Shown in pieces: positions 3,917 through 23,852 of a stretch of DNA of 24,000 nt. The notes under the pieces were generated by a model that was not told where the DNA came from, searched no databases, and saw only the letters and a list, made by a program, of their open reading frames with translations. Position numbers and translations under genes: made by a program. Location of the stretch: positions 1,686,190 through 1,710,189 of the forward strand of contig NZ_JQLG01000004.1 in the NCBI RefSeq assembly GCF_000744115.1, in the 5' to 3' direction. Position 1 is the first letter of the stretch, and each line of letters opens with the position of its first letter. The stretch comes from Carnobacterium alterfunditum DSM 5972 (GTDB taxonomy: Bacteria > Bacillota > Bacilli > Lactobacillales > Carnobacteriaceae).

Positions 3917-4032
3917 ACGTATGTGTAAAATAGTTCTCGAGATGATTTTATTTTTTACTAGCAAAATGAAAGAAGGCGTTCTATCATAAATGTATGCTGA
4001 GCGGCAAATACATAGATGAAAGAGGCCTTCTT

Positions 4033-5442
4033 ATGGATAGAATTATAACAAAATTATATGAAATAATAAAGGAATCGAGCGATTTAATCGCTACAGAGGA
4101 GTCTATACAACTCTATATGTATGAAGTATTCACTGAATTAGTAGGAGATATCTTCACCCATATGAATCAAGTGATCAAAGAACAAAAACAAGGCGAAGGC
4201 TGGAAAGTGAAACGAGACGATTGGAAAACCGTTCAGTTTATTTTTGGTCCTGTTCGTTATCGCCGTACCTTAATGGTCGATCAAGAGAGTCAAAATCATT
4301 ATCCGCTAGATGACTGGTTAGGCATTCGAAACTACCAACGCCATAGTCCACTCGTAGAAGTGAAAGTAGCAGAACTAGCTAGTAAGTGTACCTACCGGGA
4401 CACCGCTGAATTATTGAAAGAATGGACGGCAGTCACTATTAGTCACCAAACAGTCGGCAGTCTTCTTAAACGAGTTGGAGGAGCACAAGCACGTGAAGAT
4501 GAAGAAATGGTAGTAGAACTAGACGAAGCCGTCGAGTTGCCAGAAGGTAAAAAAGTGGACTATTTTTACGCCGAGGCTGATGGCATTTTTGTTCGTGGGA
4601 CGGAAAAGAGAAAAAGCTTAGAAGTTCGTCATGCGCTACTTTACGAAGGCTGGGAGAAAAATGGAAAGAGAGTCTCCTTAAAGGAGCCTAAAGCGATCAT
4701 GACGACTAAAAAAACGGCTGGTTTTTGGGCAGAAGTTCAAGCCTTTACTGCGAGTCATTATGCGTTACAACAAGCTCAAGTCATTACCAATAGTGACGGT
4801 GGACAAGGCTATACCGCAGACAAATTTCAAGAAGCCTTTTCTCAGTCGAACTATCCTGTAGTCAATCAGTTAGACTCTTATCACATCTTCCAAGGCTTAA
4901 ATCGCGCGTTTGGTTCACAGACTAGCCTCTTTAAACAGAAGGTCAATCAAGCTTTAAAAACACATGATTTAAATGAGTTAACAATCTGGTTGGATACTTA
5001 TGAAAGCACACTAGACGAGACACCAGCAGTGGAAAAACTGACTACCTTTAGAACATACGTATTACGGAATTGGGATCGAATTTTCGATTGGCGTGAAAAA
5101 GTAGAACAGGTTCCGCAGGACGCAAGAGGTTTAGGCGCAATGGAGTCGAATCAGCGGCATATTTCTTTTCGGATGAAAAAGCGTGGGATGCATTGGAGCG
5201 AAGAAGGCTGTGAAGCCATGGTAAAGGTAAAACAAGGCATCTTAAATCACACGTTACGTGACGCCTATCTTCACCAACAAAATAGGAGTACGAGACAACA
5301 ACGCAAGCTGAAACAAACGGTTCGTTTATCGTCGCTATTGCATCAGAAGACACGTCAGTCGGTTGGTGCAAAGGATGGGACAATGCCGTTGTATGCTTCT
5401 CATTCATCAGCAATGGGGAAACTCATAAAAAGTTTTCGTTAA
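4033..5442 (+). CDS. Transposase, probably ISLre2 / UPF0236 family
   Basis: About 469 aa from ATG 4033, which follows an AAAGAGG SD; the track start at 3994 lacks an SD. Size, the basic C-terminal tail and my recollection of the ISLre2/UPF0236 N-terminal pattern support the call, as does the IR-flanked context. The family assignment is from memory, not from a search. Confidence 0.6.
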   Translation: MDRIITKLYEIIKESSDLIATEESIQLYMYEVFTELVGDIFTHMNQVIKEQKQGEGWKVKRDDWKTVQFIFGPVRYRRTLMVDQESQNHYPLDDWLGIRNYQRHSPLVEVKVAELASKCTYRDTAELLKEWTAVTISHQTVGSLLKRVGGAQAREDEEMVVELDEAVELPEGKKVDYFYAEADGIFVRGTEKRKSLEVRHALLYEGWEKNGKRVSLKEPKAIMTTKKTAGFWAEVQAFTASHYALQQAQVITNSDGGQGYTADKFQEAFSQSNYPVVNQLDSYHIFQGLNRAFGSQTSLFKQKVNQALKTHDLNELTIWLDTYESTLDETPAVEKLTTFRTYVLRNWDRIFDWREKVEQVPQDARGLGAMESNQRHISFRMKKRGMHWSEEGCEAMVKVKQGILNHTLRDAYLHQQNRSTRQQRKLKQTVRLSSLLHQKTRQSVGAKDGTMPLYASHSSAMGKLIKSFR

Positions 5443-5452
5443 TTCCCTTCTG

Positions 5453-5490
5453 TTTGGGGAAGGTTCCTTGTTTTAGGAACCTTCTCCAAA
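5453..5490 (+). other. Strong 15-bp stem hairpin just after the transposase stop, with no U-tract
   Basis: TTTGGGGAAGGTTCC (5453-5467) pairs with GGAACCTTCTCCAAA (5476-5490) including one G-U pair, around an 8-nt loop. It is followed by CGGATGG, so it is not a canonical intrinsic terminator. Confidence 0.5.
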
Positions 5491-5633
5491 CGGATGGGCC
5501 AGCAAACGGCGGAGCCGTGCGGTAGTAGACGAGTGTACAAAAGTAGAACGCCTAAACTAGCAGGATAATAGGACGACCGAGAAAAACTTGACACAGACTC
5601 ATAAACCTTTTGGTAGATATTAAAAGAAATTTT

Positions 5634-5642
5634 TGCTATAAT
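5634..5642 (+). promoter_or_regulatory. Extended -10 promoter element (TGcTATAAT) upstream of trxA
   Basis: Perfect TGnTATAAT about 60 nt upstream of the trxA start codon, with only a weak -35. Confidence 0.5.
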
Positions 5643-5702
5643 AAACTGATGATGCAGCTTACTATTAATAAGCTGTAAAAATAGTTTTTGGGAGGAATAG
5701 TA

Positions 5703-6014
5703 ATGGTACAAGCAGTAACCGATGCAAATTTTGAAGCAGAAACAAAAGATGGTTTATCAATAACAGATTTTTGGGCAGCATGGTGTGGCCCTTGTCGCAT
5801 GCAATCACCAGTATTAGAAGAACTAGATGAAGAAATTGGGGATAAAGTAAAAATAGTGAAGATGGATGTTGACGCTAATTCTGAAGTACCAAGCTCTTTT
5901 GGTATTATGAGTATTCCTACGTTATTAGTTAAAAAAGACGGTCAAGTTGTTGAAAAGTTGATTGGTTATCACAATAAAGAACAAATCGAAGATGTTATCG
6001 CAAAATATAAATAA
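5703..6014 (+). CDS. trxA: Thioredoxin
   Basis: 103 aa from ATG 5703, 7 nt after a GGAGG SD. It has the WCGPC active site and typical thioredoxin length and fold pattern. Confidence 0.95.
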   Translation: MVQAVTDANFEAETKDGLSITDFWAAWCGPCRMQSPVLEELDEEIGDKVKIVKMDVDANSEVPSSFGIMSIPTLLVKKDGQVVEKLIGYHNKEQIEDVIAKYK

Positions 6015-6046: not shown

Positions 6047-7540
6047 TGAATTACTACCTTTAAACTAGACACTTAAAAAAACGATATTATGCAGTCCATA
6101 GAAGATGATCCCGATAAGCAACGGGGGTCATCTTCTTTAATTTTTTTTGATAACGACTATGATTGTAAAACGAAATATATTCTTCTACAGAATTCCACAA
6201 ACCCTGAAGGCTTTCATGTCTTTCTGAGAGGATTACGTCCTTCATATGACCAAAAAAGGACTCCATTGGGGCATTATCCCAGCAGTTACCTCTTCTAGAC
6301 ATGGATTGTATAAATCCCATTTTTTCAACATTACTTTGATATGTAGGATTGGTGTAGTGGAAGCCTTGATCAGAATGCAAGTATCTTTCTGTATAAGGCA
6401 TATCACTTGTGATGCATTCTAATTTTCCCAAAGTTTGATAAACCAAATTCATCTTTAAAGAAGTAGCGAAGTGGTGGGCAACGATCTCTCCTGTTGCACC
6501 ATCCTTAACGGCAGAGAGGTAGGCCATTTGGCTATTACCGTAAGGTAAATATGTAATATCAGTAAGCAATACTTTATAAGGCGTTCCTCTATCAAAATCA
6601 CGATTAACAAGATTTTTCTTGGTTTTGTGTTCTTGTGTTGCCTTCATCATTTTCTTGTAAGGTTTAGCTTTTCTAATGGGCGACATGATACCGTAGATTC
6701 GAAGGATTCTTCGAATTTTTTTATGGTTCATTACGATATCATATTCAGCTTCTAATGCCATCTTTATTTCTTCTACACCACATTTGTTTTTCTCAATGTA
6801 TACTTGATAAAGCAATTCGAAATCATTGCTGTCCTGTTCGTACCTCTTATAACGTGTGGCCTCATTGTTCTTCCAATAATAATAACCACTACGACTAACT
6901 TCGGCAATTTCACACAAAGACTTAACCATGCCTTTAAGACTATATTCTCGTATGATTGAATTGATTAATTCATACCGCTCACAGGTTTTCAGAACGTTTC
7001 CTTTCTCGTTTTTCACGCTCCTTCCTTGAAATTCTAATTTTTTTACTAAATCTAAATTGCCTTCCAGATACGCTATACGTGCTTTTGCTTCTTCCAGCTG
7101 CTCCTCGATAGATCCCATTTTTCCGCCTTCTGATCGTGTACCTTTCCCGCGAGTTTCGGTATGGAAGCCTTCTTGTCCTCTTATTGCCATACTATTTTTC
7201 CAACGACGCACACATTGATGAGCTTTTCCTTTGCCTAGAAGATCTTCAGGCAGACCAGCATTTTCAAATATGGCCGTTGAGGTCATTCCACTCTTACTTT
7301 CCTTTACTACTTTAATTTTAAAAACAGGCGAGTAGGTAATGCTTTTTGAAGATGCTGATTTTACATTAGGATTTTTTTGCAATATCTCTATTTCATATTC
7401 TGTATATAATTTTTTGCTCATCAAAGAAACCTCCACTTAGAAACAATTCTATTAAAGTATAACGAAAATAAAATAAAAAAATAACCCAAAAACTAAAAAC
7501 ACTCTTTTTTTTGAGTGTCTAGTTTTCGGGTAGGGTATCA
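6047..7540 (-). mobile_element. IS3-family insertion sequence
   Basis: Terminal inverted repeats: TGAATTACTACCTTTAAACTAGACACT at the left end (6047 onward) against the reverse complement of the right end, TGATACCCTACCCGAAAACTAGACACT (ending 7540). It has TG...CA termini. TTT is present on both flanks (6044-6046 and 7541-7543) as a possible 3-bp target duplication. Confidence 0.8.
6087..7421 (-). CDS. IS3-family transposase, OrfA and OrfB in one continuous frame
   Basis: N-terminal HTH region, leucine-zipper-like segment (IEEQLEEAKARIAYLEGNLDLVKKLE) and DDE/rve core (LLTDITY..., HSDQGFHYT, RRGNCWDNAPMESFF). ATG 7421 follows a GGAGG SD. An A7 run lies at the usual OrfA/OrfB junction (7038-7044). 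Confidence 0.9.
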   Translation of the reverse strand: MSKKLYTEYEIEILQKNPNVKSASSKSITYSPVFKIKVVKESKSGMTSTAIFENAGLPEDLLGKGKAHQCVRRWKNSMAIRGQEGFHTETRGKGTRSEGGKMGSIEEQLEEAKARIAYLEGNLDLVKKLEFQGRSVKNEKGNVLKTCERYELINSIIREYSLKGMVKSLCEIAEVSRSGYYYWKNNEATRYKRYEQDSNDFELLYQVYIEKNKCGVEEIKMALEAEYDIVMNHKKIRRILRIYGIMSPIRKAKPYKKMMKATQEHKTKKNLVNRDFDRGTPYKVLLTDITYLPYGNSQMAYLSAVKDGATGEIVAHHFATSLKMNLVYQTLGKLECITSDMPYTERYLHSDQGFHYTNPTYQSNVEKMGFIQSMSRRGNCWDNAPMESFFGHMKDVILSERHESLQGLWNSVEEYISFYNHSRYQKKLKKMTPVAYRDHLLWTA

Positions 7541-8598: not shown

Positions 8599-8919
8599 AG
8601 CAAGTCTAAGTTTGTCTTTCATTGCTTTGACCTTAGCTGGTTTTTTGAATGAGTAAGAGTTGGATAATCTACTGACGGCTTCTTGCTCATCTTTGGATCA
8701 TAACAAATAGGCCTGTCGTTTTAAGAGTGGGAGGGACATTATGGAAGCAGATGTATTAGGAGTAAGAAATAGCTATGCTTATATTCTTGAGGGGAAAAAT
8801 ATTTTCAATACTTTACCTGTAGATGAAGATGATTTGATTGAAAATGCTGATGGAATTCTTGATTGTCCTTTTGACGGAGTTCTAAGAAAACATAAATTAT
8901 CTTTAAGAGATTTAAATGA

Positions 8920-9983
8920 TCTGATTTGTCAAATTAAGCTATACAAAATATCTTCATCCATGTAACTCATAAAAACTTCCAGCGGTGTTTGGTAATTTAA
9001 TGACTTTCTTGGAATTATATTCCGTTTGTGTGCAACAGACGATACGAAAGCCTGATCAACTTCGTTGAAATCCATTTCTTTTGGCAATCCATCTTTTCGA
9101 AGAAGCCCATTAGAATTCTCGTTTAAAGCTCGTTGTGAAGGCGTTCCAGGGTCAGCGAAGTAGATAGCGACATCATGCTGGTTGCACAAAGATTTCCAGT
9201 TGGAGAACTCCTTACCGCAATCAAAAGTAATGGATTTGAATAATTTTTTTGGTATGGATTGGAACCATTGATTCATAGCACTCTCAATGTCGCAGGCTTT
9301 ACGCCCTTTGGGCTTTAAGGTAATGATAGCTTTCGATAAAATCTCTACTAGAGTAATGACCGCACTTTTGTGGCGGACACCTACAATGGTATCTCCTTCG
9401 ATATGACCAAATTCTTCTTTAAATGTTGGATAATCTATTATTCTTTCAGAGATATTTCGTTTATAAGCTTGTCTACCTCTACGTTCTTGATGTCCGTTAG
9501 GCTTTCTTTTCCCTTTCATTGGAAGGGTAGCTTCATCGAATGTTTTTTCTTTAAATTGTCTATAAAGTGTTCGTACGGAACAGTCTATTGTCATTTCTTT
9601 ACGGCCAATAATGACATCAGGCGTCCAGCCTTCAGCTACTTTTTCCTTGATATAAAGATGTTGTTCTTCTGGTAAAACAACTTTTTCGCGTCCACACTGC
9701 TTCTTGTTTTTCTTATACCGTAGGTAATACTCGAAAGCTGTATGTCCTGCTCTGAAGAACCTGATAACATTATTAATCGGTGTTCGAGTACGATTCAAGT
9801 AAGCAGCTATTTTAGCAACTGGAATACCTTGATGGTAATAAGCTTCTATCATCACTAGTTCATCCATGGTAATATGGGTATAGGTCATTTGTGATCACTC
9901 CTTGTTTTCTATGGTTGGAAATACAATTAGAGTGTATCACGAATGGCTTTTTTATTTGTATAGCTTAATCTTACAATCCACGT
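8920..9983 (-). mobile_element. IS30-family insertion sequence, copy A (1064 bp)
   Basis: The region of identity with copy B ends exactly at 8920 and 9983. Imperfect terminal IRs share ATTAAGCTATACAAA. It is flanked by GA/GA (8918-8919 and 9984-9985), consistent with the 2-bp duplication typical of IS30. Confidence 0.9.
8929..9888 (-). CDS. IS30-family transposase
   Basis: 319 aa with an N-terminal HTH and DDE motifs (GHIEGDTIVG, ITFDCGKEFS, FADPGTPSQRALNENSNGLLRK). AAGGAG SD upstream. Confidence 0.92.
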   Translation of the reverse strand: MTYTHITMDELVMIEAYYHQGIPVAKIAAYLNRTRTPINNVIRFFRAGHTAFEYYLRYKKNKKQCGREKVVLPEEQHLYIKEKVAEGWTPDVIIGRKEMTIDCSVRTLYRQFKEKTFDEATLPMKGKRKPNGHQERRGRQAYKRNISERIIDYPTFKEEFGHIEGDTIVGVRHKSAVITLVEILSKAIITLKPKGRKACDIESAMNQWFQSIPKKLFKSITFDCGKEFSNWKSLCNQHDVAIYFADPGTPSQRALNENSNGLLRKDGLPKEMDFNEVDQAFVSSVAHKRNIIPRKSLNYQTPLEVFMSYMDEDILYSLI

Positions 9984-10100
9984 GATATGAAAACCACAAA
10001 ATTACTATTTGTAAAATTAGAGGGCGAAAAAACCATAGTTTTGAATACGATTTGTCTTAATTTAAATATGTAAGTACTTAAAATTAAATAAATGGACCGT

Positions 10101-10220: not shown

Positions 10221-10943
10221 ATGAGAGCGATGTATATCCGATCAGAAGATGAGTACCTCTACTGCAGAGTTTTAGGAGATGGGGAACCTTTATTATTACT
10301 TCATGGAAATGGCGAAGATCATCAAATATTTGAGCAACAATTGCTGTATTTTAGTAAAAAATTTAAAGTCATCGCATTAGATTCGAGAGGACATGGATGC
10401 TCCAATCATGGGGAAAAGCTGTTAACATTTCAAAGAATGGCTCAAGATATCCTTGTAGTTCTACGCTACCTTAATGTATCAAAAGTAACGATCATGGGTT
10501 TTAGTGATGGAGGAAATTTAGCACTGTATTTCGCTAGTCATTATCCAGAAAAGGTAAACAAACTTATTGTGGTTGGTGCTAATTATAAAGTAGATGGATT
10601 AGAAAAAAAATCATTAACTGAAGTGAAAAGAGACTACATTTTATTTGCTATTTTAAGTAAATTTTCTTCGAAAGCTGAGAGAAAAAAACAAGTCATTGAT
10701 CTTATGTGGCATAAATTAGATTTGAAATCTGTTGATTTAATAACCATAAAAGCTCCTACATTGGTAGTAGCGGGTGAGTATGATGTTATTGAAGAAAGTC
10801 ATACTAAAAAACTGCATAAATTGATCAGCACCAGTAAGCTAGTCATCGTACCAAAAGCAAGTCATTTTTTGATGGTTGAAAAATATAAAGAATTCAATCA
10901 ACTCGCAGAGAATTTTTTGTACGACAAAACCAGATTTTCTTAA
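10221..10943 (+). CDS. Alpha/beta-fold hydrolase
   Basis: 240 aa with HG oxyanion motif (LLLHGNG), nucleophile elbow GFSDG and a C-terminal catalytic His (KASHF). A TGtTATACT extended -10 lies about 55 nt upstream. Confidence 0.8.
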   Translation: MRAMYIRSEDEYLYCRVLGDGEPLLLLHGNGEDHQIFEQQLLYFSKKFKVIALDSRGHGCSNHGEKLLTFQRMAQDILVVLRYLNVSKVTIMGFSDGGNLALYFASHYPEKVNKLIVVGANYKVDGLEKKSLTEVKRDYILFAILSKFSSKAERKKQVIDLMWHKLDLKSVDLITIKAPTLVVAGEYDVIEESHTKKLHKLISTSKLVIVPKASHFLMVEKYKEFNQLAENFLYDKTRFS

Positions 10944-12041: not shown

Positions 12042-13298
12042 ATGAGTATTGGCTATGCTTGTTTAACAATAGGAATTCCAGGAACAAGTATTAGAACTTG
12101 TCGGAAAGTAAATGCAACAGAAGAAAAACTAAAAGAATTGATTCTTTTTAATTTGGAGTCACTTGAAAATATTATAGATTACAATATAAAAAATAAAATC
12201 AAATTATTTCGTATTAGCTCAGATATCATCCCTTTTGGTTCAAGTCCGGTCAACACATTAGCATGGTGGGAACTATTTAAACCTCAATTTGAACAGATCG
12301 GACAAAAAATCAAAGCTGGTGGAATGCGAGTATCGATGCATCCTGGACAATATACGGTATTAAATTCACCAGATGAAGATGTTGTATCGAGAGCGATTGA
12401 AGATTTAAATTATCATGCACGCTTTTTAGATAGTCTTGGAGTCGGTTCCGAACATAAAATAGTGTTGCATATTGGTGGTGTCTACCAAGAAAAAGAGATT
12501 GCTGTGAAGCGTTTTGTCAGCAGTTATCAAATGTTATCAGATACAATAAAAAAAAGACTGGTAATTGAGAATGATGACCGTTCTTATACCGTTTCTGATG
12601 TATTATCTGTTAGTCTAACGACAGGAGCTCCGGTTATTTATGATAATCTTCATAATGCTATCAATACAAGTGATGTAACAAAAGATGATGCTTATTGGAT
12701 CGAACTGACCCGCAAAACATGGAAGCCTGAAGATGGTCCTCAAAAAATACATTATTCTCAACAAAGTGCAATGAGCCGAATAGGGGCACATACGCGAACA
12801 ATTTCACTTGATCCATTTATGGATTTTTATCATCAGGTCTCAAGAGAAGACTTGGATATTATGTTAGAGGTAAAAGATAAGAGTCTTTCTGCTATAAAAT
12901 GCATTATTGCGACAACACCGCAGCAGCATGTCAAATTATTGGAAAAAGAATGGAGTCTTTATAAATACAGTGTTTTAGAAAGATCACCAAAGCTATATGA
13001 TAAGATACGTCAATTATTAAAAGATAAAAATAGTTTTCCTGCACTAGATTTCTATCGTTTAGTGGATCAATCATTAGAAATGGAAGTGACAACAGGAACT
13101 GCGGTGAATGCTGCTGCTCATGTTTATGGTTATTTTAAAAATAAAGCAACAGAAAAAGAAAAAATTGCTTTTTTCAAACAATTAGATAAAGTTGAAAAAA
13201 ATGATGGCTCACTAAAAACATTAAAGAAAATGTTGTGGAAATTAGCTGTAAACTACAATGAACCTTATTTGCTTGAATCATATTATTTTATACTTTAA
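12042..13298 (+). CDS. uvdE: UV damage endonuclease UvdE/UvsE with a ~100-aa C-terminal DUF1722-like extension
   Basis: The N-terminal ~310 aa match the UvdE TIM-barrel pattern (GYACL..., FRISSDIIPF, HPGQYTVLNSP, VLHIGG, ENDD). The tail (AAHVYGYFKNKATEKEKIAFFKQL...NEPYLLESYYF) resembles the YbgA-type DUF1722 domain. The tail assignment is from memory. Confidence 0.85.
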   Translation: MSIGYACLTIGIPGTSIRTCRKVNATEEKLKELILFNLESLENIIDYNIKNKIKLFRISSDIIPFGSSPVNTLAWWELFKPQFEQIGQKIKAGGMRVSMHPGQYTVLNSPDEDVVSRAIEDLNYHARFLDSLGVGSEHKIVLHIGGVYQEKEIAVKRFVSSYQMLSDTIKKRLVIENDDRSYTVSDVLSVSLTTGAPVIYDNLHNAINTSDVTKDDAYWIELTRKTWKPEDGPQKIHYSQQSAMSRIGAHTRTISLDPFMDFYHQVSREDLDIMLEVKDKSLSAIKCIIATTPQQHVKLLEKEWSLYKYSVLERSPKLYDKIRQLLKDKNSFPALDFYRLVDQSLEMEVTTGTAVNAAAHVYGYFKNKATEKEKIAFFKQLDKVEKNDGSLKTLKKMLWKLAVNYNEPYLLESYYFIL

Positions 13299-13404
13299 AT
13301 TAAATAATGCTTGAAAAATGATTGATGATGGGTAAAAATTGCAGTATACTACTTTATTGGATCAAGAAAAATTCTATTAATTCACATATGAAAGAGGTTA
13401 AAAT

Positions 13405-13566
13405 ATGAATATACAAAAAATTGTCGCCTTAGTTATTTTACTTTCAGGAGTTATTTTACTTGTTTACGGATTTGTAGAGAGCAATCAGGTTTCATTTATT
13501 ACGGGAATTGTTCTGATCGTGATCACGATTTTAGATTATATGAAATTAAAAAACAAGGAAAAATAA
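13405..13566 (+). CDS. Small two-TM membrane protein, 53 aa (MNIQKIVALVILLSGVILLVYGFVESNQVSFITGIVLIVITILDYMKLKNKEK)
   Basis: Not in the ORF track. An AAAGAGG SD lies 7 nt upstream. A plausible TTGATG-17-TATACT promoter sits near 13323-13351. Two hydrophobic helices are present, and a strong terminator follows. Confidence 0.55.
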   Translation: MNIQKIVALVILLSGVILLVYGFVESNQVSFITGIVLIVITILDYMKLKNKEK

Positions 13567-13642
13567 CGGTAATAAGTCACTATCCATTAATTAACATATG
13601 AAAAAATGCCTAGTTTTTTTAACCCTTCTTTGACACTTATAG

Positions 13643-13687
13643 AAAAAACCAATAAACGCTGATGGTACAGCTTTTATTGGTTTTTTC
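13643..13687. terminator. Bidirectional intrinsic terminator-like hairpin
   Basis: AAAAAACCAATAAA (13643-13656) pairs with TTTATTGGTTTTTT (13673-13686), with an additional inner GCTG/CAGC stem. Confidence 0.7.
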
Positions 13688-13946
13688 TATGTAGTTAAAA
13701 AGGGTGCTTTTTTTTCGAAGATAAAATTTTCTTTCAACAGTCAGTATGTAATGTATACTGCGATTTATTTCTTTAAGGGGCATTACAGTAAACAAATGGA
13801 GTAGTAGGTGTGGAGTGTACTTAATGATTGGGTCATTCTGGTGGAAATAACCATCCGAATAGAATATAATAAAATTAATAAATAGGATAGCGGTCCACAC
13901 TTGCTTGAGAGACATTTTATTTTAAAAGAGAGAGGGGTTTTAACTG

Positions 13947-14738
13947 ATGAGAGAGATTACACATGCTAAATTAAGGAAATTCAACATGATCATGGGAGGC
14001 CTTCATTTGCTTCAAGGGCTTGCAATGCTTTTTCTGGCGACAAGCGTGATCCAAACAATTGGAGAATTTTCGCCACAAATCACGCAAAATTATTTGGCGT
14101 TCAATCAAGAGACGAGTTCACTTGAACTGGAATCAAAAGTATTGTTCGACTTGCCGTTCGGTATTTTAGTGGCTTCATTTTTATTCATCTCGGCTGGTGC
14201 TCATGCACTTATTTCGATACCAAAAAAACTGAATGATATTTACAATTCAGATTTGGAAAAGGGTATTAATAAATTCCGTTGGTTTGAGTACGCGATTAGT
14301 TCTTCTATTATGATTGTTTTGATTGCGACGTTGTTCGGAATCTATGATATTGCATCGCTTGTATTAATATTCGCAGTCAATGCGACGATGAACTTATTTG
14401 GTTTAGTCATGGAACAATTGAATACTGGTAAATCAAAAGGAAACATCATCTGGGGGCCGTTCATTTGGGGTTCAATTGCCGGTATCGCACCTTGGATAGC
14501 CATCCTGTTGTACATGTTCGGCAATGGTAATTTTGATCAGGTCCCTTGGTTCGTATGGGCCATCGTCGGGACGTATTTTGTGGCATTCAACACATTCCCC
14601 GTAAACATGATTTTACAATACAAGAAAATTGGGAAATGGAAAGATTATGTCTATGGTGAAAGAATTTATATCATCTTAAGTCTTGTTGCCAAATCTATTT
14701 TGGCTTGGCTGGTTCTTTTCGGAGCGATGCAGCCTTAA
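13947..14738 (+). CDS. Heliorhodopsin (HeR), 263 aa, 7 TM
   Basis: Signature blocks are shared with the prototype HeR 48C12: GGLHLLQ (TM1 His20), SAGAHALIS (His86), FRWFEYAISSSIMIVLIA (counterion Glu114), NATMNLFG, IAGIAPWI and GERIYIILSLVAKSILAW. The retinal Schiff-base Lys249 is codon 14691-14693. Confidence 0.9.
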   Translation: MREITHAKLRKFNMIMGGLHLLQGLAMLFLATSVIQTIGEFSPQITQNYLAFNQETSSLELESKVLFDLPFGILVASFLFISAGAHALISIPKKLNDIYNSDLEKGINKFRWFEYAISSSIMIVLIATLFGIYDIASLVLIFAVNATMNLFGLVMEQLNTGKSKGNIIWGPFIWGSIAGIAPWIAILLYMFGNGNFDQVPWFVWAIVGTYFVAFNTFPVNMILQYKKIGKWKDYVYGERIYIILSLVAKSILAWLVLFGAMQP

Positions 14739-14825
14739 TTTATAAAGATTGAAAAATTGAGTGTTACTTCATTTACGATTTTTTCTGTATAAGGTACTTT
14801 GATGAATCCGAAGGAGTGATCAAGT

Positions 14826-15464
14826 ATGAGAAGTCAGATGAAACAGCTGCTTGCGTGGTTTACCTTGATTTTGAGTTTGGGCTTAATGGCAGGTTGTTCC
14901 AACACCGACGAGGGAATATCAGGTGATTCTTCAGCAACGCTATCATCCACAGGGTCTGAAAAGAGTGCGACAGAATCTAGCAGTGCTGACATTTCATCCG
15001 AAAGCTCTAGTTCTGAACCTTCAGCCGCAGAGAAGGCCGGCTATGGAGCAGTTGGAGCGCTTGCGGATTCGGAGATGACAATAGAGGATATGCTGGTATA
15101 CGCCATCCAAGATGAGCATTTGGCGCACGGGGAATATGCTCTTGTACTAGAAAAATTTGGTGACCAAAATCCGTTTAATAATATCGTACTTTCTGAAGAA
15201 CAACATATAGCCGAATTGACCGCCATTTTTGAAAAATATGGTTTTGCGATTCCAGCAGATGAATCGGCTGAACATGTTTTTGTTCCTACGACAGTTAAAG
15301 AGGGATTGGAAAATTGCGCAGACGGTGAAGTCGATAATATTGCGATGTACAATAAATTTTTAGAGCTAGAAATTCCCGAAGATGTTCGGATGGTATTTAC
15401 CTCTTTGCGGAACGCTTCTGAGGGACATTTGAAATCTTTTCAGCAGAATCTCGAAAAATATTAA
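14826..15464 (+). CDS. Lipoprotein with DUF2202 (ferritin-like) domain
   Basis: Signal peptide with lipobox LMAGC, then a Ser-rich linker. The region DMLVYAIQDEHLAHGEYALVLEKFGDQNPFNNIVLSEEQHIAELTAIFEKYGF matches the remembered DUF2202 four-helix ferritin-like pattern. AAGGAG SD. No terminator is seen between it and the HeR gene. Confidence 0.7.
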   Translation: MRSQMKQLLAWFTLILSLGLMAGCSNTDEGISGDSSATLSSTGSEKSATESSSADISSESSSSEPSAAEKAGYGAVGALADSEMTIEDMLVYAIQDEHLAHGEYALVLEKFGDQNPFNNIVLSEEQHIAELTAIFEKYGFAIPADESAEHVFVPTTVKEGLENCADGEVDNIAMYNKFLELEIPEDVRMVFTSLRNASEGHLKSFQQNLEKY

Positions 15465-15476
15465 AAAAAATCAAAT

Positions 15477-15528
15477 AAAAATAAGAATGAAAGCCTGCTA
15501 TTTGAGAGGTCTTCGTTCTTATTTTTTT
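15477..15528. terminator. Intrinsic terminator between the convergent DUF2202 and CMD genes
   Basis: ATAAGAATGAA (15481-15491) pairs with TTCGTTCTTAT (15512-15522) including one G-U pair, flanked by an A-run and a T7 run. Confidence 0.75.
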
Positions 15529-15617
15529 AGGAAATGATAAATTTTCTAAGTGTAAAATTACTTTTTAGGTCAAATAGTATCCTCGTTAAACATTGCTAAA
15601 CGAATCAAGACAGCCTC

Positions 15618-16217
15618 TCATGAAAAACGGATGATTGGCTTTTTCAAAAAGTCAGCAATAATTGCTTGAAAGATAGCCACAGGAAGATAAATGATGAGGC
15701 TGGAAATCATGCCCAGTTCATAGAACAGGCTGCTTTTCTTGATGGCCTTGCCTTTTATGCGACTAAATAAAGCGCTCAATGCGATGCCGTGGACATTCCC
15801 AATCATGATGGAACGGATCGCCCCTAAGATTCCTGTTGCTTTATTTTCTCCATATAGTGACACGATACGGTTCCATGATTCTTCAGTGGGGTTGCCACGA
15901 GTATCTGCATAGTGTTGAGCAAACAGAAAGGCAGGCATTTCATCGGAAGGGATATCATCAGCTGTTCCGGTCAATAGATTCTGTATTTCCTGATTGCTAA
16001 AACCTTGTTCAAGAAGAGCCATCTTTGTGTGGGCATAAGAACAAACTTCGCAACCGTTGACCTCCGTCACACCCAACATGATCCTTTCAATGAGTTCAGA
16101 TTGCAATGATTTGTCTTTTTTGGCTTTGATCATGTATTTCATTGTCCGTATCCCTTGATAAAGAATGGGATAAAACTCTTGGATTGAATAGTTTTTTTTG
16201 TAGAATTCTTGTGCCAT
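15618..16217 (-). CDS. Carboxymuconolactone decarboxylase (AhpD-like) family protein with a C-terminal membrane segment
   Basis: The motif VTEVNGCEVCSYAH (CxxC of AhpD/CMD-like proteins), 199 aa, a hydrophobic C-terminus, an AAAGGAG SD and TATAAT boxes upstream on the minus strand. Confidence 0.7.
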   Translation of the reverse strand: MAQEFYKKNYSIQEFYPILYQGIRTMKYMIKAKKDKSLQSELIERIMLGVTEVNGCEVCSYAHTKMALLEQGFSNQEIQNLLTGTADDIPSDEMPAFLFAQHYADTRGNPTEESWNRIVSLYGENKATGILGAIRSIMIGNVHGIALSALFSRIKGKAIKKSSLFYELGMISSLIIYLPVAIFQAIIADFLKKPIIRFS

Positions 16218-16550: not shown

Positions 16551-16679
16551 TGTAGATGTACGTGGTGTTTCACTTTTTAGAGGTCAAACGATTGTTTTTT
16601 CTTGTGTTTAAATAAGGTATAGGTTCGAATCCTATCTTCTACATTCTCAACTACCTTAACTAAAGGTAGTTTTTTTTTT
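16551..16679 (+). ncRNA. Candidate small RNA or cis-regulatory leader with a tRNA-like acceptor/T-arm module
   Basis: It is delimited by the extended -10 promoter and a perfect terminator. It contains a canonical T-arm, ATAGG-TTCGAAT-CCTAT (16619-16635). An acceptor-like stem, GTAGATG (16552-16558) / CTTCTAC (16636-16642), pairs at 6 of 7 positions. I could not fold a convincing D-arm or anticodon arm. Confidence 0.4.
16651..16679 (+). terminator. Intrinsic terminator
   Basis: CTACCTT (16651-16657) pairs with AAGGTAG (16663-16669) around a 5-nt loop, followed by a run of 10 T. Confidence 0.8.
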
Positions 16680-17554: not shown

Positions 17555-18454
17555 ATGCTAGAAGTTAAGAATTTGAAAAAAACTTTCGGAGCACTGACAG
17601 CTGTTGATGATATCAGTTTTACGATTCCGGATGGTCAAATTCTAGGTATGATCGGTCAGAATGGAGCAGGAAAAACGACAACTTTTCGGTTGATATTAAA
17701 CTTTTTAACAGCTGATTCTGGGGAAATTTTATGGAATGGACAACCAATAAAAAAATCAGATTATGATATTATCGGTTATTTACCAGAGGAACGTGGCTTA
17801 TATCCTAAAGTTTCAATAGAAGATCAAATTATTTATTTTGCACAATTACGAGGGAAATCTAAAAAAGAAATCAAGCCTCAAATAGATAAATGGATGGAAA
17901 AGTTTCAAGTTAAAGGAAAGAAAACGGATAAAATCAAATCGTTATCTAAAGGCAACCAACAAAAAATCCAGTTGATTGCTACTCTGATCCATCAGCCTAA
18001 GCTCGTTATTTTGGATGAACCGTTTAGTGGATTAGATCCCGTTAATGCTAGTTTATTAGAAGCAGGGATCAAAGAATTGAAAAAGCAAGGAGCATCCGTT
18101 ATTTTTTCTAGCCACAACATGAATAACGTTGAAGATATCTGTGATCATTTAGTTATGTTACGAGATGGTAAAATGGTATTAGATGGAACAGTTCGCGAAA
18201 TCAGAGAGCAGTTCGGACGGAAAAAATTATTTTTGGAAACACTAGTTTCTAGTGATGAATTAAAAAAAATGCCAGGAGTATTGAAGGTCGAAACGACAAA
18301 GGATGGTTTAAAAGTTCTTGATTTAGAACATCCTGAAGATGGAAAGGCAATTTTTGGAAAAGTGACAAAAAATGGGTATATCACTACTTTCAGTCAGCAG
18401 CCACCCACTATAGAAGAAATCTTTAAAATGAAAGCTGGTGAACCTATTGAATAA
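17555..18454 (+). CDS. ABC transporter ATP-binding protein (NatA/YhaQ-like)
   Basis: Walker A GQNGAGKTT, signature LSKGNQQK and Walker B LVILDEPFSGLD. It is 299 aa with a C-terminal accessory domain, as in the NatA subfamily. Confidence 0.9.
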   Translation: MLEVKNLKKTFGALTAVDDISFTIPDGQILGMIGQNGAGKTTTFRLILNFLTADSGEILWNGQPIKKSDYDIIGYLPEERGLYPKVSIEDQIIYFAQLRGKSKKEIKPQIDKWMEKFQVKGKKTDKIKSLSKGNQQKIQLIATLIHQPKLVILDEPFSGLDPVNASLLEAGIKELKKQGASVIFSSHNMNNVEDICDHLVMLRDGKMVLDGTVREIREQFGRKKLFLETLVSSDELKKMPGVLKVETTKDGLKVLDLEHPEDGKAIFGKVTKNGYITTFSQQPPTIEEIFKMKAGEPIE

Positions 18455-19706
18455 GTTTTGGGTGATCGTGAGTGATGTCTACAAAAAAAATGTTAAGTCC
18501 TTTAGTTTTTTAACAATGGTACTTTCACCTATAGTGATGCTCTTGATCATTGGTGGAGTTGTCTACTTTATCGACCAAACTGAAAATGATACGCCTGAAA
18601 TTGCTATTTTAACAACTGACCAAGAAGTACAGACGCTATTAGCAACAGAAGAAAATCAATTTACCATCAATAAAGAAATTACAACTAAAGAAGCTGCAGA
18701 AGAAGCTATGAAGCAAGAAGAGTTAGATGGTTATTTAGAAGTCAGCTCTGAAAATCAACTCGTTACCGCTAAGTATGTGGATACGTCGTCCAGTGATACT
18801 TTGGATGTGACTGTTTTAAGCGGTCTTTTGACAGCTATTCAGTTAAATAGAAAAGCTGCGGAATATGGATTGACACAACAAGAAACCAAGGAATTAATAT
18901 CGCCAGCTAATTTAGCAACTGAAACGATCGATTTTGAAAATGGCGAAATAACAAGCAAAGACAGTACTGCTGAGACCATCAAAATGTGGAGCTCCTATAT
19001 TGTTGGGATCGCAATTTTTATTTTTATTATTAATTATGCAAGCATTATTGGGACAGAAATTGCATCTGAAAAAGGGACACGGATCATGGAAGTTATTTTA
19101 TCAAGCGTTTCTTCAACTGTTCATTTTTTCGGGAAATTATCAGGTATTTTATTGGTTTGTCTGACACAAATCATTATCTATGTTATTTTGATCTTGATTG
19201 CTTATCCTTTTGTGAAAAATATGGAATTTATTCAAGAATTCTTGCAAGGCATTGATCTTGGAGAGTTGTTGAGTAATTTAATTGGCACAACACTTATTTA
19301 CTTTGTATTAGGGATCATTCTGTATGCTGGATTAGCAGCCTTCTTTGGTTCACTAGTAACTAAAATCGAGGATGTCAATAAAGCTGTTACACCTTTGATT
19401 TTCTTGGCAATGATTGGATTTTATGGTGGGTTATTTGCTTTTGCTAGTCCAAATCAACTTATTGTTAAGGTTGGTTCATATATTCCTTTTTTCACACCAT
19501 TCATTATGCCGTTTAGGGTAGCAAGTGAAACGGTCTCAACTGCTGGAATAGGGATTTCTATCATAGTGATGATTGTGTTCACTATACTATTTACCTTGTT
19601 ATCGCTAGTTATGTACCGCTCAAATGTGCTAGTCTACTCAGATGCTGGAATGATGAAAACGATGAAAACATCTTGGAGTATTTTAAAAAATGAACGAAAA
19701 AAATAA
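18438..19706 (+). CDS. ABC-2 type transporter permease (NatB/YhaP-like)
   Basis: An N-terminal TM segment, an extracytoplasmic domain of about 150 aa, then 5 TM segments. It is translationally coupled to the ATPase gene by overlap. The exact start is uncertain; GTG 18438 is from the track. Confidence 0.8.
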   Translation: MNLLNKFWVIVSDVYKKNVKSFSFLTMVLSPIVMLLIIGGVVYFIDQTENDTPEIAILTTDQEVQTLLATEENQFTINKEITTKEAAEEAMKQEELDGYLEVSSENQLVTAKYVDTSSSDTLDVTVLSGLLTAIQLNRKAAEYGLTQQETKELISPANLATETIDFENGEITSKDSTAETIKMWSSYIVGIAIFIFIINYASIIGTEIASEKGTRIMEVILSSVSSTVHFFGKLSGILLVCLTQIIIYVILILIAYPFVKNMEFIQEFLQGIDLGELLSNLIGTTLIYFVLGIILYAGLAAFFGSLVTKIEDVNKAVTPLIFLAMIGFYGGLFAFASPNQLIVKVGSYIPFFTPFIMPFRVASETVSTAGIGISIIVMIVFTILFTLLSLVMYRSNVLVYSDAGMMKTMKTSWSILKNERKK

Positions 19707-20366: not shown

Positions 20367-20443
20367 TGAAGATTTATTATAACGTGATTTGAAACAGAAA
20401 CCTACACTTTTACAAAAAAATACGATTCAGTGGTTTTTAACAA

Positions 20444-21507
20444 ACGTGGATTGTAAGATTAAGCTATACAAATAAAAAAGCCATTCGTGATACACTCTAA
20501 TTGTATTTCCAACCATAGAAAACAAGGAGTGATCACAAATGACCTATACCCATATTACCATGGATGAACTAGTGATGATAGAAGCTTATTACCATCAAGG
20601 TATTCCAGTTGCTAAAATAGCTGCTTACTTGAATCGTACTCGAACACCGATTAATAATGTTATCAGGTTCTTCAGAGCAGGACATACAGCTTTCGAGTAT
20701 TACCTACGGTATAAGAAAAACAAGAAGCAGTGTGGACGCGAAAAAGTTGTTTTACCAGAAGAACAACATCTTTATATCAAGGAAAAAGTAGCTGAAGGCT
20801 GGACGCCTGATGTCATTATTGGCCGTAAAGAAATGACAATAGACTGTTCCGTACGAACACTTTATAGACAATTTAAAGAAAAAACATTCGATGAAGCTAC
20901 CCTTCCAATGAAAGGGAAAAGAAAGCCTAACGGACATCAAGAACGTAGAGGTAGACAAGCTTATAAACGAAATATCTCTGAAAGAATAATAGATTATCCA
21001 ACATTTAAAGAAGAATTTGGTCATATCGAAGGAGATACCATTGTAGGTGTCCGCCACAAAAGTGCGGTCATTACTCTAGTAGAGATTTTATCGAAAGCTA
21101 TCATTACCTTAAAGCCCAAAGGGCGTAAAGCCTGCGACATTGAGAGTGCTATGAATCAATGGTTCCAATCCATACCAAAAAAATTATTCAAATCCATTAC
21201 TTTTGATTGCGGTAAGGAGTTCTCCAACTGGAAATCTTTGTGCAACCAGCATGATGTCGCTATCTACTTCGCTGACCCTGGAACGCCTTCACAACGAGCT
21301 TTAAACGAGAATTCTAATGGGCTTCTTCGAAAAGATGGATTGCCAAAAGAAATGGATTTCAACGAAGTTGATCAGGCTTTCGTATCGTCTGTTGCACACA
21401 AACGGAATATAATTCCAAGAAAGTCATTAAATTACCAAACACCGCTGGAAGTTTTTATGAGTTACATGGATGAAGATATTTTGTATAGCTTAATTTGACA
21501 AATCAGA
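20444..21507 (+). mobile_element. IS30-family insertion sequence, copy B (1064 bp), inverted relative to copy A
   Basis: The transposase and the antisense ORF translations are residue-for-residue identical to copy A. The non-coding ends that I compared by eye also match. It is flanked by AA/AA (20442-20443 and 21508-21509). It is inserted between yslB and murI. Confidence 0.9.
20539..21498 (+). CDS. IS30-family transposase
   Basis: Identical 319-aa product to the ORF at 8929-9888. Confidence 0.92.
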   Translation: MTYTHITMDELVMIEAYYHQGIPVAKIAAYLNRTRTPINNVIRFFRAGHTAFEYYLRYKKNKKQCGREKVVLPEEQHLYIKEKVAEGWTPDVIIGRKEMTIDCSVRTLYRQFKEKTFDEATLPMKGKRKPNGHQERRGRQAYKRNISERIIDYPTFKEEFGHIEGDTIVGVRHKSAVITLVEILSKAIITLKPKGRKACDIESAMNQWFQSIPKKLFKSITFDCGKEFSNWKSLCNQHDVAIYFADPGTPSQRALNENSNGLLRKDGLPKEMDFNEVDQAFVSSVAHKRNIIPRKSLNYQTPLEVFMSYMDEDILYSLI

Positions 21508-21628
21508 AAATAAAAAAGGGGTATTTAAATATTTATCAAAGTTAATTTACTTAATCCCTTGAATTTAAGTGTAAAAAAAGGGAAAATAAGAAGAGTGTAC
21601 AAATGAAACTAAATTGAGGTTGTTAAAA

Positions 21629-22487: not shown

Positions 22488-23852
22488 ATGCGTGCAGATG
22501 GTAGAAAAAATGACGAAAATCGATTGATGACAATAGAAACCAATTATTTGAAAAATCCTGAAGGATCGGTATTAGTTTCTTTCGGTGATACGAAAGTAAT
22601 TTGTAATGCGACAATTGAAACTAAAGTTCCACGTTTTTTAAAGGGAATGAAAAGCGGCTGGGTCCATGCTGAATACAGTATGCTGCCTAGGGCTACTAAT
22701 ACGCGAAATATTCGTGAAGCAGCTAAAGGTAAACTAAGCGGCCGTACAATGGAAATCCAACGGCTGATTGCTCGTTCATTACGCTCAAGCATCGATTTAG
22801 AAGCGTTAGGAGAACGTTCTATCACGGTAGATTGTGACGTGATCCAAGCAGACGGTGGAACGCGTACTGCTAGTGTGACAGGCGCATTTGTAGCTTTGAA
22901 ATTAGCTATTCAAACATTGTTAGATAGTGGTGAATTGGCACTTAGTCCTATAAAAGAAAATGTAGCCGCTATAAGCGTAGGAATTTTAACGGATGGACAA
23001 GCTGTGTTAGATTTAAATTATTTAGAAGATAGTGCAGCAGATGTGGATATGAATTTAGTTATGACTTCTGGCGGACAATTTGTTGAAATTCAAGGTACAG
23101 GTGAAGAAGCTACCTTTTCTGCCGATCAACTTTCAGTATTATTAGAATTTGGGAAAAAAGGAATCAAAGAATTGATACAAATACAAAATGACGCTTTTGA
23201 TCAAGCGGTCGCTTTAAAAAATGAAGAAGTAACGATTCATCCGGCGGTTGCCAAAGATGAAATTTTAATTGCGACAAATAATGTTGGCAAAGCAAAAGAA
23301 TTCGAAGCGTTGTTTGCTGAAAAAGGATTCAAGGTGAAAACATTGCGTGATTTCCCAGAGATTCCTGAAGTTGAGGAAACAGGAATTACATTTAAAGAAA
23401 ATGCACTATTAAAAGCAGAAACGATTGCCCATACACTCAATATGGTAGTGCTAGCTGATGATTCAGGATTGAAAGTTGATGCACTAGATGGTGCACCAGG
23501 AGTGTTTTCTGCTCGTTATGCTGGGGAATTTAAAAGTGATGCCGCGAATAATGCAAAATTATTGCATGAATTAACAGATATACCCAAAGAAAAGCGGACT
23601 GCTCAATTTCATTGTACTCTTGCACTTGCTTTGCCAGGGAAAGACAGCTTGGTTGTTGAAGGCGAAGTAGAAGGATCCATCTTGACCATTCCTAAAGGGG
23701 AAAATGGTTTTGGCTATGATCCGTTATTTTTTGTTGAAAGTAAAGGCAAAACAATGGCCGAGTTGTCTCAAGAAGATAAAAATACTTTAAGTCATCGTGC
23801 AGTAGCATTAGAAAAATTAGATGAAGTATGGGATGAATGGATAAACCGTTAA
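22488..23852 (+). CDS. rph: Bifunctional RNase PH / non-canonical purine NTP pyrophosphatase (Rph-RdgB fusion)
   Basis: The N-terminal ~240 aa match RNase PH ([33 protein letters not shown]). The C-terminal ~200 aa match HAM1/RdgB ([39 protein letters not shown]). One continuous frame. Confidence 0.92.

Follow-up and report, generated by a model that had tools for sequence, protein, structure and literature searches.

The open reading frame (ORF) at 13947-14738 of a 24,000-nucleotide stretch of the Carnobacterium alterfunditum DSM 5972 genome (contig NZ_JQLG01000004.1, positions 1,686,190 to 1,710,189; this whole stretch, as analysed, is called the window) is, as far as its sequence tells, a real, intact and ordinary member of the known heliorhodopsin family, without any unusual sequence feature. 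A first-pass annotation, made from the letters alone, had proposed a complete heliorhodopsin gene at this place, and both family profiles are indeed matched end to end. The product aligns with positions 1-242 of the 242 of Pfam PF18761, a hit far beyond chance (E 1.2e-98, 329.7 bits for a cut-off of 26.7), and with positions 1-244 of the 244 of the NCBIfam equivalog NF038020, named 'heliorhodopsin HeR' (301.9 bits for a cut-off of 100). Among proteins of solved structure, it matches TaHeR (6is6, E 9e-57) and 48C12 (6su3, E 7e-49), and because it can be aligned from end to end with the solved seven-transmembrane heliorhodopsins 6is6, 7clj, 6su3 and 6uh3, its fold can be regarded as settled. In the HMMER alignment with 48C12, the two histidines H20 and H86 correspond to H23 and H80, and S82 and S245 to S76 and S237, while E114 and K249 pair with the counterion E107 and the retinal lysine K241, the roles that the first reading had given them. 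K249 also pairs with the lysine of the SLVAKS motif of TaHeR, and E114, located within RWFEY, is the equivalent of E107 in the RWVEY of 48C12. The diagnostic motifs start at residues 17 (GGLHLLQ), 84 (GAHALIS), 111 (RWFEY) and 245 (SLVAKSILAW), and the earlier placement of His20, His86, Glu114 and Lys249, the last one with its codon starting at 14691 (13947 + 744), was correct in every case. The seven hydrophobic helices described at that time are visible as seven hydrophobic segments in the hydropathy profile of the 263-residue product. The N-terminal tail, together with the loops of its side, has 15 lysines and arginines in all, versus a single one on the opposite side, a distribution which, by the positive-inside rule, predicts the inverted topology, with a cytoplasmic N-terminus.

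The gene is under strong purifying selection and is not a remnant. Compared with its counterpart in C. pleistocenium, it shows a synonymous divergence (dS) of 0.53 and a nonsynonymous divergence (dN) of 0.016, which gives a dN/dS ratio of 0.03. The copy of a second C. alterfunditum strain differs by synonymous changes only, with a nucleotide identity of 98.6% and a protein identity of 100%. More distant relatives were taken from a scan of one genome per species, which returned 508 of them, and the related loci analysed are the best 80 of these 508 (L007-L086), whose heliorhodopsins are 74-89% identical to that of C. alterfunditum. Across 81 clade members, 101 of the 263 positions never vary, and another 62 reach a conservation of at least 90%; the key residues listed in Table 1 are invariant, among them H20, H86, K249 and E114 (81 of 81), with the exception of S245 (80 of 81). 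These figures bear on the idea of an inactive passenger, either an opsin that never meets retinal in its fermentative host or a decaying gene acquired by horizontal transfer. Such a passenger would agree with the lack of any chromophore synthesis gene in the window and with the atypical G+C content at third codon positions (GC3) of the gene (0.43, where other genes have 0.20-0.32), which suggests acquisition. However, a neutral gene would not be kept this well, with such a low dN/dS at that level of synonymous divergence, with an undamaged reading frame in two species, where the ribosome-binding site and the promoter-like block are also intact, and with its key residues invariant, so that this explanation is exceedingly improbable.

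By analogy with its characterized relatives, it is rather probable that the gene encodes a functional heliorhodopsin that acts as a light-dependent helper of a cytoplasmic partner, with a promoter of its own, an external supply of retinal and protection against light damage as its output. It would be a seven-helix retinal protein with its N-terminus in the cytoplasm, with K249 as the site of the retinal Schiff base and E114 as the counterion of the latter. It would absorb green light (at about 540 nm), run through a slow photocycle and pump no ions, by analogy with TfHeR, the 84%-identical heliorhodopsin of Trichococcus flocculiformis. Through its basic cytoplasmic loops it would bind the cytoplasmic partner and alter its activity in a light-dependent way, and the most likely output would be protection against light damage, in the sense of repairing lesions caused by UV or oxidation. 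The gene would be transcribed from its own promoter, and the cell would import from the environment either retinal itself or a compound that yields retinal on cleavage. TfHeR itself does not pump ions, absorbs at 542 nm and binds a class II cyclobutane pyrimidine dimer (CPD) photolyase with a dissociation constant of about 22 uM, increasing repair about 3-fold (Shim et al. 2022, PMC9769723), and its photolyase-binding residues are E97, R162 and K227 (PMC9769723). The equivalents in Carnobacterium are D97, K162 and K227, with the charges kept.

Several observations weigh against this functional reading. Neither a carotenoid or retinal synthesis family nor a photolyase appears among the 22 ORFs scanned in the window, which are 21 of its 28 ORFs of at least 90 amino acids plus one of 53. 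The seven ORFs outside the scan (5048-5413, 5439-5711, 9370-9675, 15041-15352, 20752-21057, 22544-22825 and one other) all coincide in part with longer ORFs that were scanned, and five of the seven are on the strand opposite to these. Among the 120 best relatives (at least 60% identity) of the Trichococcus photolyase there is no protein bearing a Carnobacterium name. The three TfHeR binding positions vary among photolyase-linked heliorhodopsins themselves (A97 in 11 of 17, H162 in 7 of 17). The gene does not appear to share a transcript with uvdE, the UV-damage endonuclease gene that lies upstream, as a terminator-like hairpin stands between them. Finally, the genomic context is very variable in the clade, the 120 immediate neighbours being spread over 135 Pfam families.

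The same evidence bears on a job like that of TfHeR, in which the Carnobacterium protein would bind and stimulate a CPD photolyase whose gene lies elsewhere in the genome, so that green light, too, would serve for photoreactivation. This possibility is consistent with its 84-86% identity to the Trichococcus heliorhodopsins, with the kept charges at the three binding positions, with photolyase being the commonest recurring neighbour in the clade (17 of 80 loci) and with a basic residue at the K227-equivalent position in 17 of 17 photolyase-linked members. It is nevertheless unlikely, given that the 24 kb window holds no photolyase and that, as weak evidence of absence, no Carnobacterium name occurs among those 120 relatives. 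On this weak basis, the known photolyase partner may be missing from the C. alterfunditum genome; no photolyase was found in the Carnobacterium loci L001-L006 and L087-L089 either. Two photolyase matches with 71% identity were considered as the Carnobacterium partner and rejected, since their contigs have 45-50% G+C compared with 35% here. The TfHeR binding residues were likewise discarded as a predictor of the partner, since they do not separate photolyase-linked from unlinked loci.

The neighbourhoods of the related genes, in which ORFs were called in the 80 loci and then clustered, speak for a helper whose output is protection against light damage. DNA photolyase is the commonest recurring neighbour, found in 17 of the 80 loci, in 14 of which the distance is at most 1.5 kb. 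The most frequent Pfam families of the 120 immediate neighbours are tocopherol cyclase-like proteins (7), photolyases (5), Old Yellow Enzyme (4), ADP-ribosylglycohydrolase (4), MsrB (3), DUF2238 (3), histidine kinases (3) and MsrA (2), and glyoxalase is also present. The recurrent theme is the repair of light and oxidative damage, in agreement with the published hypothesis, and its counterparts in the window are UvdE, the AhpD-like CMD protein, the ferritin-like DUF2202 protein and YflT. Heliorhodopsins have been proposed to be light switches that mitigate light-induced oxidative stress (PMC8612252), and the UV-repair genes that recur beside them (UvdE here, photolyase in Trichococcus and both in some archaea) fit this published idea of a sensor that limits light damage. 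As a separate observation, a tocopherol cyclase-like protein of about 320 residues (PF14249, E down to 4e-21) is encoded about 40-50 nt 3' of the heliorhodopsin gene, on the same strand, in L048, L050, L055, L068, L070, L074 and L086, whose hosts are Izemoplasmatales, Acholeplasmataceae, Peloplasma and some other Bacillota. A divergent photolyase gene is often found upstream in these loci, giving the order photolyase, heliorhodopsin, cyclase-like protein, and it is conceivable that the cyclase-like protein is tied to lipid or carotenoid chemistry, and hence to the chromophore.

A different partner has also been considered, namely that the heliorhodopsin regulates an ABC transporter, a glutamine synthetase or a pathway of the two-component or oxidative-stress kind. 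Work on other heliorhodopsins has described an ABC multidrug exporter and glutamine synthetase as partners, and ABC transporters and alpha/beta hydrolases as classes of neighbours (PMC11109279); in the window, an ABC-2 transporter and an alpha/beta hydrolase are encoded close to the heliorhodopsin gene, and histidine kinases flank three of the related loci. Both window genes, however, form part of the conserved trx-murI backbone and are parted from the heliorhodopsin gene by other genes, including some on the opposite strand, and the transporter is of the ABC-2/DrrA-like type, unlike the heterodimeric exporter that has been studied, all of which leaves little probability for this alternative.

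The other candidate is the gene upstream. The trio formed by uvdE-DUF1722, a gene for a 53-residue protein (sm53) and heliorhodopsin is kept in C. alterfunditum and C. pleistocenium, and consecutive accession numbers suggest that it is also present in Carnobacterium sp. ISL-102. The DUF1722 domain occupies residues 308-416 of the UvdE fusion; it is otherwise known from YbgA, whose gene precedes the photolyase gene in E. coli. The heliorhodopsin could therefore be thought to modulate its neighbour UvdE-DUF1722, so that an enzyme of excision repair, otherwise active in the dark, would come under the control of light. In favour of this are the conserved trio, the adjacency of heliorhodopsin and UvdE/UvsE genes that arose independently in the Znf-HeR loci (PMC8612252) and in Thermoprofundales (PMC9585477), and a metagenome-assembled genome of Anaerofustis (L073) in which the same fusion lies 4.2 kb from the heliorhodopsin gene. 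This last case is the only one with UvdE nearby among the 80 related heliorhodopsin loci outside Carnobacterium. The fusion is widespread, as a metagenome scan for it yielded 80 loci with full-length relatives (51-97% identical; median locus of 8 kb), from which L093 and L094 were set aside, as they share the Carnobacterium gene order HlyIII-UvdE-sm53; in the other 78, the flanks that are available show neither a heliorhodopsin nor a class II photolyase. These 78 non-Carnobacterium loci led to the rejection of a general tie between the fusion and heliorhodopsin, and because of this result, together with the single case among 80 heliorhodopsin loci, the link is specific to the Carnobacterium lineage. 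The hairpin between both genes weakens it further, and it could be mere inheritance within one small lineage, so that light control of UvdE by the heliorhodopsin is decidedly unlikely. A more specific version, in which the cold-adapted Carnobacterium would have swapped the photolyase partner for UvdE-DUF1722, possibly with sm53 as an adaptor, is to be seen as very unlikely; if it were true, green light would stimulate a normally dark-working excision-repair enzyme in a bacterium that is unable to make its own retinal.

The helper of a cytoplasmic partner would need retinal from outside the cell. The first-pass annotation had noted the lack of crt and blh genes in the window, which agrees with the scan of its ORFs, and the 25 families that most often adjoin heliorhodopsin in the related loci include none for carotenoid or retinal synthesis. 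Because the oxidative cleavage of beta-carotene needs O2, and because Carnobacterium is not known as a producer of C40 carotenoids, uptake of retinal from the environment would be the default expectation. The question of the retinal source extends to the whole clade, most of whose hosts bear the names of fermentative or anaerobic taxa.

With regard to its expression, the heliorhodopsin gene seems to be a transcription unit of its own, because a terminator-like hairpin and a promoter-like block, both of them conserved, precede it (Table 1). The hairpin looks like a bidirectional intrinsic terminator between uvdE-sm53 and heliorhodopsin, and its stem is kept in C. pleistocenium through paired changes on both sides, from CCAATAAA/TTTATTGG to CCGATAAA/TTTATCGG. 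The promoter-like block is probably the promoter of the heliorhodopsin gene, and it is also kept in C. pleistocenium, where the -10 element reads TACAAT. Since no terminator is visible in the gap between the heliorhodopsin and DUF2202 genes, transcription may possibly read through into the latter. Two other kinds of control were discarded: a riboswitch or other known RNA 5' of the gene, as no Rfam family reaches its gathering score over 13290-13960 and the weak matches all fall on the terminator hairpin, and SOS control, as there is no Cheo-box-like GAAC-N4-GTTC site near uvdE or heliorhodopsin (one-mismatch sites number 4 elsewhere in the window, versus 7.8 expected by chance). The small gene sm53 was found in all the Carnobacterium loci examined, and its dN/dS of 0.11 versus C. 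pleistocenium indicates purifying selection; it matches no family above the curated cut-offs of Pfam and NCBIfam, with a weak resemblance only to membrane segments of HdeD and DUF4401.

Table 1. Position of the heliorhodopsin gene, its presumed expression signals and the neighbouring genes in the window.
Feature	Position	Strand	Remarks
Heliorhodopsin coding sequence	13947..14738	+	ATG start, 263 amino acids (ORF list and translation)
Heliorhodopsin key residues			H20, S82, H86, W112, E114 (counterion), Y115, N215, Q224, S245, K249 (retinal Schiff-base lysine, codon 14691-14693)
Ribosome-binding site GAGAGGGG	13930..13937	+	9 nt before ATG; same in C. pleistocenium and second C. alterfunditum strain
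Promoter-like block TGGAAA-17 nt-TATAAT	13842..13870	+	About 77 nt 5' of start codon; 10/12 consensus matches
Hairpin with A-run and T-run flanks	13638..13691	.	Minimum free energy -29.9 kcal/mol, z -8.3 versus shuffles
sm53, 53-residue ORF with two hydrophobic helices	13405..13566	+	Between uvdE and heliorhodopsin
UvdE/UvsE UV-damage endonuclease with C-terminal DUF1722	12042..13298	+	418 amino acids; PF03851 E 2e-67, PF08349 E 6e-21, TIGR00629 194 bits
DUF2202 (ferritin-like), lipoprotein-like N-terminus	14826..15464	+	PF09968; 88 nt downstream of heliorhodopsin
CMD/AhpD-like protein	15618..16217	-	PF02627; convergent with the heliorhodopsin gene
Alpha/beta hydrolase	10221-10943		At most 3.5 kb from heliorhodopsin
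ABC-2 transporter	17555-19706		At most 3.5 kb from heliorhodopsin

The heliorhodopsin gene is located within a chromosomal backbone, zapA-cvpA-mutS2-trx ... murI-rph, and the region around it shows signs of a foreign origin. Its high GC3 is approached or equalled by those of the DUF2202 (0.37) and CMD (0.435) genes, versus the lower range given above in the other 15 genes of the window. L001, the second C. alterfunditum strain, lacks the DUF2202 gene, and C. pleistocenium lacks this gene as well as CMD, whereby 13947-16217 resembles a small foreign block that varies between strains. Homologues of CMD and DUF2202 (67-73% identical over the best segment by tblastn; 70-73% for CMD) accompany heliorhodopsin in Trichococcus, and from this and the base composition we infer that the three genes may share a foreign, higher-GC origin, perhaps a Trichococcus-like one. 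Mobile elements were also observed, with four transposase insertions in the 24 kb (3994-5442, 6087-7436, 8911-10002 and 20425-21516): one of the UPF0236 type, one of the IS3 type with fused HTH and rve domains (449 amino acids) and two copies of the IS30 type. These two copies, at 8911-10002 and 20425-21516, have 1092 nt each, are inverted and 99% complementary, and bracket the heliorhodopsin region. All four insertions are missing from L001 and from C. pleistocenium (L087). An IS30 composite transposon carrying heliorhodopsin was rejected, since L001 and L087 show the same gene order without the insertion sequence (IS) copies; it follows that these copies inserted recently and did not bring the gene. 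Two further elements of the window deserve mention. The CMD and YflT genes are 580 nt apart, and between them a tRNA-like element of 92 nt (16552-16643, + strand) has a good acceptor stem and T-arm (GGTTCGAATCC) and oversized D and anticodon regions; it scores 29.1 bits with the Rfam tRNA model (gathering score 29.0), is not called by ARAGORN, and may represent a tRNA in decay or what is left of an integration site. At 22488-23852 (+ strand), RNase PH and a Ham1/RdgB non-canonical NTP pyrophosphatase are fused into a single protein of 454 amino acids, named 'Multifunctional fusion protein' in UniRef, and this fusion is kept in C. pleistocenium and Carnobacterium sp. ISL-102.

The heliorhodopsin gene is already annotated, the clade is well populated and experimentally sampled, and the finding is thus one already known. 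The exact protein carries the RefSeq name 'MULTISPECIES: heliorhodopsin HeR [Carnobacterium]' (WP_034547816.1), and the window genes are 100% identical, gene by gene, to those of contig FSRN01000001.1 of GCA_900143105.1. The chromosome had been recognized from its sequence as one of the Lactobacillales, rightly so, as C. alterfunditum belongs to the family Carnobacteriaceae; the view of this host as unexpected does not hold, since Firmicutes are among the known carriers (PMC8612252) and TfHeR, from the same family, was characterized in 2022 (PMC9769723). Heliorhodopsins are nearly restricted to monoderm (single-membrane) prokaryotes, Firmicutes included (Bulzu et al. 2021, PMC8612252). The hosts of the best 80 relatives include Enterococcus aquimarinus, Jeotgalibaca, Halolactibacillus and six Trichococcus species with names, and many Clostridia, Anaerolineaceae, Izemoplasmatales and Acholeplasmataceae are found as well. 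The clade spans Bacillota, Chloroflexota (Anaerolineaceae), Mollicutes-like lineages, Limnochordia and one metagenome-assembled genome of Sumerlaeota, with contexts that differ almost wholly from locus to locus, which suggests frequent transfer of heliorhodopsin as a single gene across phyla among organisms of sediments and digesters.

In the library of papers that was searched, none mentions Carnobacterium and heliorhodopsin together. What is gained is one more cultured, oxygen-tolerant lactic acid bacterium with a heliorhodopsin that is very close to TfHeR, itself one of the few with a published function, and knock-out tests of what heliorhodopsins do for the cell could use C. alterfunditum and C. 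pleistocenium as native hosts. Beyond confirming the annotation the finding matters little, its residual value being the lineage-specific pairing with UvdE-DUF1722 and the question of the retinal source.

Among the known systems, the closest is that of TfHeR (locus L012, NZ_FOQC01000073.1), which comes from the same family Carnobacteriaceae. Both proteins have 263 amino acids, are 84% identical in an ungapped alignment and share every key residue, and each locus has a CMD/AhpD-like gene immediately downstream. The Trichococcus cluster differs in that it contains a class II CPD photolyase, DUF2238 and a Cdd1/HhH protein, none of which is found here, where UvdE-DUF1722 is encoded upstream instead. 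The best match among the solved structures is TaHeR, from a Thermoplasmatales archaeon (6is6, 7u55), with residues 3-263 aligned and with RWFEY, SLVAKS, the two histidines and M221 conserved; it is, however, archaeal and much less similar than TfHeR, and the extracellular A-B loop of the Carnobacterium protein is 7 residues longer. The prototype 48C12 (6su3, 6su4) comes from an actinobacterial metagenome clone, and has Q213 at the position taken by M221 in Carnobacterium and TaHeR. As to the gene context, heliorhodopsin adjoins a UV-damage endonuclease gene in Thermoprofundales subgroup E and in the Znf-HeR loci, as it does here, and this adjacency to UvsE/UvdE has been read by the authors as a light sensor tied to the repair of light damage (PMC9585477, PMC8612252). 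Those clusters also contain carotenoid synthesis genes and photolyase, and some of their heliorhodopsins have an N-terminal zinc-finger extension, whereas the Carnobacterium locus has neither, and the UvdE of Carnobacterium, unlike those of the Thermoprofundales and Znf-HeR clusters, bears the extra DUF1722 domain.

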